Shown here in pieces: positions 31,731-31,843 of a DNA stretch of 64,000 nucleotides. Numbering within the stretch: position 1 is the stretch's first letter; each line of letters starts with the position of its first letter. The stretch lies in assembly GCF_058153355.1 (NCBI RefSeq), contig NZ_CM177019.1. One strand, 5' to 3'. Below the pieces are notes generated by a model that worked only from the letters and a program-made list of their open reading frames with translations, did not search any database and had not been told where the DNA came from. The position numbers were made by a program, and so were the translations under genes.

Positions 31731-31843
31731 TTCGAGTTGCAGGAAGGCGGCAAACGAGTGAAGCCCCAGGAGCTTACATAAGTAAGTGACTGGGGTGAAC
31801 GAATGCAGCCGCAGCACATGCAACTTGAAGTATGACGAGTATG
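31731..31843. repeat. ERIC (enterobacterial repetitive intergenic consensus / IRU) element
   Basis: GTGAAGCCCCAGGAGCTTACAT and AAGTAAGTGACTGGGGTGAACG differ by one base each from the classic ERIC1R/ERIC2 primer sites; lies between dxs and yajO. Confidence 0.85.

Follow-up and report, generated by a model that had tools for sequence, protein, structure and literature searches.

The ERIC (or IRU) repeats of Enterobacteriaceae (Sharples & Lloyd 1990; Hulton et al. 1991; Wilson & Sharp 2006, as cited in PMC2229807 and PMC10969869) are units of 127 bp, which is also the ERIC unit length given in the literature, with a core that contains the primer sites, terminal inverted repeats and flanking TA dinucleotides. 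In the account of the citing papers they are imperfect palindromes that are intergenic, co-transcribed, multi-copy and variable between strains, and the copy described here has all of these features in common with them. The primers ERIC1R and ERIC2 are standard, both sequences co-occurring in 233 papers. No partner insertion sequence that would mobilise ERIC in trans is known in reviews. According to the reviews through which the work of De Gregorio et al. (2005) on Yersinia mRNA stability elements is quoted here, co-transcribed Yersinia ERICs lower the upstream relative to the downstream transcript in an orientation-dependent manner, for which an unmasked RNase E site has been proposed. A further class, discussed by Adams et al. 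(bioRxiv 10.1101/2020.07.18.207399), comprises translational attenuators whose polarity depends on Rho, leaders in which occlusion of the Shine-Dalgarno sequence brings about premature termination by Rho. The present ERIC copy lies between dxs and yajO of E. coli, in the loop of a predicted host hairpin that covers the yajO ribosome binding site.

The product of dxs is the first enzyme of the isoprenoid (MEP) pathway. In the window (the whole stretch of DNA analysed, 64,000 nucleotides of contig NZ_CM177019.1 from NCBI RefSeq assembly GCF_058153355.1), xseB, ispA, dxs (29816-31678) and yajO (ATG at 31858) all lie on the + strand, and the open reading frame from 31858 encodes the 324-aa YajO. 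The window is from E. coli, a 361-base query being 100% identical to strain 2017-02-2CC. The dxs-yajO spacer measures 179 bp and is equal in length to that of K-12 MG1655.

A preliminary description of the sequence had recognised an ERIC element in this spacer from both ERIC primer-site motifs, each with one mismatch, and from a central CCCCAG...CTGGGG inverted repeat, and this identification stands. Joined into a 44-nt string, the reverse complement of ERIC1R and the sequence of ERIC2 match positions 31758-31801 of the + strand at 42 of 44 positions, with one mismatch in each primer site, and have no match in 100 shuffles. The inverted repeat occupies 31764-31795, with the arms CCCCAGGAGCTTAC (31764-31777) and GTAAGTGACTGGGG (31782-31795). 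The element agrees with the consensus of 26 other loci at 113 of 123 positions (10 mismatches, ~92% identity), well above the line of about 80% identity to the ERIC consensus that the preliminary description had drawn for this assignment. Identity to other E. coli copies is 92.7-95.1% (query positions 3-125), and the K-12 copy of the same unit is identical at 126 of 127 bases. What lies in the spacer is a true ERIC, a miniature transposable element, and it is already known in kind, with a copy present at the same locus in K-12.

Its boundaries differ in part from those first given, 31731-31843: the right end is correct, but the true left end lies 12-14 nt before 31731. In the alignment, empty-site strains (e.g. 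O157:H7) lack exactly 125 bp, corresponding to 31718-31842. Canonical ERIC ends, as seen in the comparison of 33 other loci, read TA-TAC(T/C)C...G(A/G)GTA-TA, the flanking TA being found on the left in 19 of 28 loci and on the right in 20 of 28. The ERIC unit so delimited spans 31717-31843 (127 bp), and the element proper spans 31719-31841 (123 bp) (Table 1). The flanking duplication reads TA...TA in K-12 and E. albertii and TA...TG in the window, and the excised K-12-type site keeps a single TA. While the element does end about 15 nt before the yajO ATG (31843 as against 31858), as had been reported, it does not fill the dxs-yajO gap, as had also been proposed: it accounts for 125 of the 179 spacer bases, and the inserted block begins only after 39 nt of host sequence (31679-31717). 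An adjoining ribosome binding site is not unusual for ERIC, because among the 33 other loci a Shine-Dalgarno sequence and start codon lie within 35 nt of the right end in eight cases and of the left end in two.

Table 1. Features of the dxs-yajO spacer and its surroundings, in window positions
Feature	Position	Strand	Remarks
Putative extended -10 TGgCATAAT over the dxs stop codon	31671-31679	+	yajO leader would start near 31686
Host 5' arm of leader hairpin	31685-31703	+	Anti-Shine-Dalgarno CUCCUGC at 31690-31696; start of the invariant TATGCTTAA (31697-31705)
Left target-site duplication TA	31717-31718	.	Canonical flanks; empty allele reads TTCA-TG-GCAGG
ERIC element proper, 123 bp, GACTC...GAGTA	31719-31841	+	First base G, family has T
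Conserved ERIC core (ERIC1R and ERIC2 primer sites)	31758-31801	+	2/44 mismatches, inverted repeat; apical hairpin 31764-31795
Nested 78-bp insert site of long-form alleles (insert absent from the window)	31802-31805	+	Alignment with strain GPEC464
3' arm of outer helix	31837-31856	+	Last 5 nt of ERIC, TG and host GCAGGAGTGGCAG; yajO Shine-Dalgarno AGGAG at 31846-31850
Putative antisense extended -10 (host TGC, duplicated dinucleotide, ERIC terminus)	31838-31846	-	TGcCATACT here, TGcTATACT in K-12; predicted start near 31831
Right target-site duplication	31842-31843	.	TG in this strain, TA in K-12 (GAGTA-TA-GCAGGAG)
yajO start codon	31858-31860	+	Equivalent of the K-12 Term-seq RNA 3' end 438,135

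As expected for this family, ERIC copies are dispersed, multi-copy and intergenic, with filled and empty sites among strains; 5,425 E. coli genomes have 52,610 detectable places between them, 2-21 in each genome (median 10). A scan of metagenome contigs with the exact core yielded 34 distinct ERIC loci, among which the invariance of the core columns is a matter of ascertainment, the loci having been retrieved by an exact 32-nt core word. The consensus fold of 24 loci contains 34 pairs, 12 of them with compensatory changes (for example, the terminal pair C-G / U-A / A-U). Such changes could fit a hairpin of RNA or of DNA, and they would also be expected from symmetric transposon ends. The dxs-yajO copy itself has terminal inverted repeats and, as an imperfect palindrome, can fold into a long hairpin (fold z-score -7.3). 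An Rfam search of the region returned no family at threshold. The model RF02818 V_AS5 (Vibrio RNA AS5), positions 1-129, aligns end to end with 31716-31839 (52.5 bits, E = 8e-11), which is below its gathering score of 96, and by the Rfam criterion the element is not a member. The V_AS5 family is evidently built on an ERIC-type repeat.

Comparison with strains that lack the element at this site, as proposed in the preliminary description, is readily made, since about 48% of E. coli genomes are empty and show the exact 125-bp absence. ERIC is present between dxs and yajO in 2,843 of 5,426 E. coli genomes, and the remainder are empty; the filled genomes include 123 with a long form, in which a 78-bp insert is nested after GGGGTGAACGA. 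Expressed as shares, ~50% of genomes carry the ERIC, ~2.3% the long form and ~48% neither. Counts of exact junction words separated 2,486 empty genomes with TG at the site, a single empty genome with TA, 1,284 filled genomes with the right flank TA (K-12 type) and 1,155 filled genomes with the right flank TG, the type found in the window. The sole TA-empty strain, Z1323PEC0010, shows no differences from K-12 in 836 shared flanking columns and 19 differences from the O157-type empty allele. Its simplest reading is a recent precise excision of the ERIC together with one TA from a K-12-type allele. The common TG-empty allele could be ancestral or could itself have descended from an excision. Where the element is present it varies little, the copy being at least 99% identical in 2,838 records.

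A scan based on YajO, with one genome per species, identified 80 loci, with dxs directly upstream in nearly all of them. Almost every spacer that could be measured is short, with a length of mostly 54-69 bp and at most 75 bp, and free of ERIC, including those of E. whittamii, Citrobacter, Salmonella, Enterobacter and Klebsiella; the exceptions are four full ERIC insertions and one remnant. In the ancestral state of the family the spacer was therefore empty. E. albertii carries the long form at the same TA, with G as first base, intact TA...TA duplications and the same 78-bp insert with one mismatch. Its copy stems from the same insertion event as that of E. coli, because the TA site, the unusual first base G and the intact duplications are shared. 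The insertion is old within Escherichia, and filled and empty alleles both persist.

The other three full insertions belong to Phytobacter diazotrophicus, P. ursingii and 'Kosakonia' sp. S29, which have a 122-123-bp ERIC of a divergent subfamily (71-75% identity to the E. coli copy, 80-90% among the three). This ERIC occupies the same host-hairpin loop in the same orientation, at a neighbouring TA. P. massiliensis is empty at this loop, and a related metagenome-assembled genome retains only the two ERIC termini, TACTCGAAGTAAGACGAGTA. The second ERIC in the same loop may reflect either a target preference or selection.

Every species in the scan has the same host pattern, ...CTCCTGCTATGCTTAA, a variable loop, and GCAGGAG(T/C)GG..., with the start codon 6-8 nt further on. 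In E. coli, CCACUCCUGC pairs with GCAGGAGUGG in a stable helix that joins the anti-Shine-Dalgarno segment to the yajO Shine-Dalgarno, and the hairpin of the empty allele has a predicted free energy of -28.1 kcal/mol (z-score -6.1). The 16-pair host helix is 83.8% paired across 47 species, compared with 34-49% in slid controls. In the same 47 species five pairs show covariation, with 18 cells changed on both sides, and the observed covariation score is reached by none of 500 shuffles. Neither CTCCTGC nor TATG varies among 69 distinct species spacers, and a pairing count on these spacers agrees with the helix. In the 5' arm the segment TATGCTTAA does not vary, whereas the bases with which it pairs do. 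By these sequence comparisons the hairpin covering the ribosome binding site predates the ERIC and is kept in ~75 ERIC-free species. No mention of a host hairpin that hides the yajO ribosome binding site was found in the published literature examined.

The ERIC insertion point is a TA that abuts the 3' arm of this hairpin. The minimum-free-energy fold of the filled allele (-80.1 kcal/mol, z-score -7.3) places the ERIC hairpin inside the outer host helix, and the same nesting is predicted for K-12, for the long form of E. albertii and for the Phytobacter alleles. The 5' arm is paired in the folds of both filled and empty alleles. The outer helix is longer in the filled allele, where the last ERIC bases GAGUA and the adjoining UG pair with UAUGCUU. 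The probability that the Shine-Dalgarno sequence is unpaired is 0.000 in filled and empty alleles alike, when folded with 100 nt of dxs context. Its opening energy is 16.0 kcal/mol in the filled and 17.2 kcal/mol in the empty allele. For the whole binding region, from the Shine-Dalgarno sequence through AUG, the cost of opening is 20.9 kcal/mol when filled as against 26.9 when empty, and a modest de-repression by the ERIC is therefore possible.

Published K-12 data sets contain several signals at this site, which we transferred to the window as 31858 + (438,135 - K-12 coordinate), older K-12 coordinates being 776 lower. Adams et al. (bioRxiv 10.1101/2020.07.18.207399) mapped a strong Term-seq 3' end (score 38,352) at 438,135 on the minus strand, at the A of the yajO ATG and 2 nt past the base of the helix. 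Its Rho score is 2.89, flagged as significant ('Yes'), and its intrinsic-terminator score is 1.03, with a cut-off of 3. In the same study a Rho termination region was placed at 438,058 (window 31935, 77 nt into yajO), rhoR66S raised the activity of a lacZ fusion to the yajO 5' UTR and ORF more than 2-fold, and an antisense Term-seq 3' end was recorded at 438,373 (window 31620). The primer used there for the 'entire 5' UTR' of yajO begins at TCCACTCCTGC, window position 31686. Huang et al. (PMC7373196) described the p19-captured RNase III dsRNA cluster S-43, the fourth most abundant cluster over coding genes, at 437,393-437,579 in old coordinates (438,169-438,355 in current ones, window 31638-31824), and attributed its dsRNA to a new antisense RNA whose mapped start is downstream of dxs. 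Neither Adams et al. nor Huang et al. mention ERIC. We rejected the idea that ERICs commonly underlie the top p19 dsRNA clusters, because five others in K-12, at rhlB-trxA, hemC-cyaA, rsd-nudC, pepA-lptF and ysgA-udp, are all without ERIC.

The cloning primer suggests that the yajO leader starts near 31686, for which TGgCATAAT, over the dxs stop codon, could on sequence grounds be the -10 element. Another candidate promoter, TGcTATGCT (31694-31702), would give a leader without the anti-Shine-Dalgarno arm and is not supported, the 'entire 5' UTR' clone starting upstream of that arm. This promoter would have accounted for the invariant TATGCTTAA. An intrinsic (Rho-independent) terminator was likewise rejected: the spacer contains no terminator-like site, and the stem is followed by CAGCAUGCAA, with no U tract. 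Translational coupling, in which a ribosome at the dxs stop codon would melt the hairpin, is unlikely because the pairing begins only 6 nt beyond this codon in E. coli, and as much as ~17 nt beyond it in other species, with the partner of the Shine-Dalgarno sequence deeper in the stem.

We lean towards regarding the ERIC as mainly a tolerated, near-neutral, co-transcribed passenger in the loop of a regulatory host hairpin, where it lengthens the leader structure. It landed at a TA on the 3' margin of a loop whose stem was already in place, in the stem-loop that the dxs-yajO spacer forms as leader of yajO. In this stem-loop the host 5' arm (CUCCUGC and flanking bases) would pair with the yajO Shine-Dalgarno sequence and keep yajO translation low, and the poorly translated early yajO message would be open to Rho-dependent termination. 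The ERIC, as an imperfect palindrome, would fold into a long hairpin of its own, so that the host arms are reunited and the ribosome binding site remains sequestered, while a leader structure of ~47 nt becomes a much more stable one of ~172 nt. Terminated or processed RNAs would then end at the base of the composite structure, their ends having been trimmed back to the stem.

According to this model the host hairpin represses yajO translation and the ERIC probably alters the repression little, an estimate of effect that is drawn entirely from equilibrium folding. Any ERIC-specific effect is likely to be quantitative and not the main control, because the hairpin predates the ERIC, the Shine-Dalgarno sequence is equally accessible with or without it, and ~48% of genomes do without the element. 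The preliminary description had suggested that this copy modulates yajO expression or acts as a 3' structure of dxs. The direction was right, as the 3' end at the AUG and the higher expression of the fusion in rhoR66S indicate, but the structure that covers the ribosome binding site is the host hairpin and not the ERIC. Several observations speak against a mere passenger. The identity of at least 99% among 2,838 records and the second ERIC in the same Phytobacter loop could reflect selection, the abundant K-12 RNase III dsRNA cluster located exactly here hints at an ERIC-specific activity, and the model leaves the invariant TATGCTTAA of the 5' arm unaccounted for.

The dsRNA cluster would find an explanation if the junction between ERIC and host were an inward-facing antisense extended -10 promoter, with RNase III-cut antisense pairing adding a post-transcriptional control of dxs and yajO that is absent from empty strains; we regard this as unlikely. 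The RNA in question would be ~210 nt long and would pair with the sense transcript, covering the ERIC, the arm with the anti-Shine-Dalgarno sequence and the final 58 nt of dxs. In K-12 the scan gives a -10 TATACT (5/6) with an upstream TG at 438,147-438,155 and a predicted start at ~438,162, and S-43 begins 7 nt downstream of this start. The attribution of S-43 by its authors to a new antisense RNA with a mapped start points the same way, as do the antisense Term-seq 3' end at 438,373, the high level of dxs antisense reads (52.8 vs 71.1 sense RPM) and the absence of the hexamer from the empty allele. Yet the -35 match is poor (3/6, spacer 19), a general promoter scan reports nothing at this junction, the empty allele has an antisense candidate of its own (TTGCAT-18-AATAAT, 8/12), the five other top dsRNA clusters named above have no ERIC, and the allele of the window has the weaker CATACT. 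That the K-12-type junction TGcTATACT, a near-consensus extended -10, is the promoter of an unannotated antisense RNA behind one of the strongest K-12 RNase III dsRNA clusters is, on this sequence match, a tentative proposal with the odds against it. If it were true, dxs and yajO would come under different antisense and RNase III control in three natural classes of allele, namely TATACT (1,284 genomes), CATACT (1,155, including the window) and no ERIC (~2,490).

The abundant RNase III products at the site would also agree with an RNA switch of the Yersinia type, in which cleavage, either of the right-hand terminal repeat by RNase E or of the long stem by RNase III, would uncouple the dxs and yajO messages and let the segments on the two sides accumulate to different levels. 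The behaviour reported in the reviews for co-transcribed Yersinia ERICs, together with an ERIC hairpin backed by the 12 compensatory pairs, is in keeping with such a switch, as is the greater density of K-12 sense reads on yajO (104.9 RPM over 975 nt) than on dxs (71.1 RPM over 1,863 nt), although the yajO read numbers need caution, the strand column of the RNA-seq table being shifted by one row. We nevertheless consider this quite unlikely. As the reviews describe it, the switch needs an ERIC that adjoins or overlaps the upstream stop codon, so that ribosomes block its folding; here the dxs stop codon ends at 31678 and the ERIC starts at 31719, a gap of 40 nt. A separate start of the yajO leader accounts for the higher yajO RNA without cleavage, sense levels of dxs and yajO were not consistently changed in two rnc mutants, and p19 does not capture imperfect intramolecular stems, according to its authors (PMC7373196). 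Highly improbable, finally, is a hybrid sense promoter made of host TTAAGA (31702-31707) and ERIC AATAAT (31726-31731), from which a translatable yajO transcript without the anti-Shine-Dalgarno arm would start at ~31738. This is the best promoter-like site of the region (9/12 match, 18-nt spacer) and exists in the filled allele only, but the scan found two sites compared with 0.8 in shuffles, which is not significant, and the yajO leader of the Term-seq authors starts at 31686, outside the ERIC.

The value of this locus is one of context, the element itself not being new: it lies in a conserved leader hairpin, it comes with an allelic series, and it leads to a reinterpretation of two K-12 data sets. 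Both of the published K-12 observations, the Rho-associated 3' end in the 'yajO 5' UTR' and cluster S-43, sit on a repeat that is missing from about half of E. coli strains, so that what is concluded from K-12 may not apply to the species as a whole. When overexpressed, YajO can bypass Dxs (PMC10663253), which makes a tight control of yajO beside dxs of metabolic interest. The natural filled, empty, long-form and freshly excised alleles constitute a ready comparison set for the effect of an ERIC on neighbouring messages.

Compared with the ERIC/IRU family, the dxs-yajO copy shows no difference in kind. It begins with G where the family has T, and its right duplication in this strain is TG and not TA. 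With the Yersinia mRNA stability elements, as the reviews present them, it shares an ERIC hairpin between two co-transcribed genes and, in K-12, a more abundant downstream RNA. Unlike them, it lies 40 nt from the upstream stop codon, so that ribosome-dependent unmasking is not expected, and it is nested in a host hairpin. The Correia/NEMIS elements of Neisseria are co-transcribed repeats processed by RNase III, some of which create promoters. The present copy is similar in being a small palindromic repeat within a message, with RNase III products at the site and a possible junction promoter, but they are an unrelated sequence family, and the published dsRNA at dxs-yajO was attributed to sense/antisense pairing. 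The leader as a whole resembles the translational attenuators with Rho-dependent polarity discussed by Adams et al. in its anti-Shine-Dalgarno helix, the 3' end at the base of the structure, the Rho region early in the ORF and the increase of the reporter in rhoR66S. It differs from these attenuators in that no ligand, small RNA or upstream ORF is known to open it, and in that half of E. coli have a mobile repeat inserted in the loop.

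A TA-type empty dxs-yajO site was found in only one of 5,426 genomes, that of E. coli Z1323PEC0010 (locus L211). Because its flanks are identical to those of K-12, with no differences in 836 columns, this site appears on sequence comparison to be the product of a recent precise excision of the ERIC. In the window, the sequences flanking the site (31100-32460, the 3' part of dxs and the 5' part of yajO) are unusually divergent: they differ from four other E. coli at 35-42 of 836 columns, and these four differ among themselves at 15-28. Only 18 of 5,445 records were at least 99% identical to the window over 361 bases.

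Longer versions of the element also occur at this site. The long form, which carries a nested insert, is present in 123 E. coli genomes as well as in E. albertii, and the inserts from the two species differ by a single mismatch. Similar nested inserts were seen at other ERIC loci, in one arm or the other. The coordinates of these and other features are listed in the table.

Features at the dxs-yajO site of compared loci (L-numbers) and elsewhere in the window
Feature	Location	Remarks
Divergent ERIC in host hairpin loop	L029:2315-2500; same region in L034 and L041	Same orientation as the window ERIC
ERIC remnant TACTCGAAGTAAGACGAGTA, 20 nt	L040, about 2465-2484	Both termini kept, interior deleted
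Nested 78-bp insert in ERIC right arm (long form)	L002:504-581; also L007 (E. albertii)	
511-aa ORF between yajO and pgpA	window 33063-34598	Pentapeptide repeat-containing protein by annotation of the closest genome
sraA small RNA gene	window 8893-8988	Rfam RF02029, 106.7 bits

Phytobacter diazotrophicus, P. ursingii and 'Kosakonia' sp. S29 carry a divergent ERIC of 122-123 bp, 71-75% identical to the window ERIC, in the loop of the same host hairpin, the conserved stem-loop of the dxs-yajO spacer. The TA into which it is inserted is the neighbour of the one used in the window. The corresponding loop of P. massiliensis (L047) is empty, and the remnant in L040, a metagenome-assembled genome, lies where the related L041 carries a full ERIC.

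In the host hairpin, the 5'-arm segment TATGCTTAA (window 31697-31705) is unchanged in all 69 distinct species spacers, unlike its pairing partner, which is variable. It contains an AUG (31699) that starts a short ORF; this ORF stops within the left end of the ERIC in filled alleles and five codons into yajO, in a different frame, in empty ones.

Elsewhere in the window, the yajO-pgpA interval that harbors the 511-aa ORF measures just 53 bp in K-12, and sraA lies between clpX and lon, as expected. In Table S1c of Huang et al. (PMC7373196), the strand column near yajO and thiI is displaced by a single row, giving yajO as + and thiI as -; the table's sense and antisense read counts for yajO should be treated with caution.

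Of 33 other ERIC loci (L086-L205), eight have a Shine-Dalgarno sequence with a start codon no more than 35 nt from the right end, and two have this arrangement at the left end. The difference is a hint that ERIC orientation is biased with respect to the genes downstream, but the sample is small and ORF calling was crude. Finally, the Rfam family RF02818 (V_AS5, a Vibrio antisense RNA) aligned over its full length to window 31716-31839 (E = 8e-11), with a score below the gathering score; V_AS5 is evidently an ERIC-type repeat under a different name.
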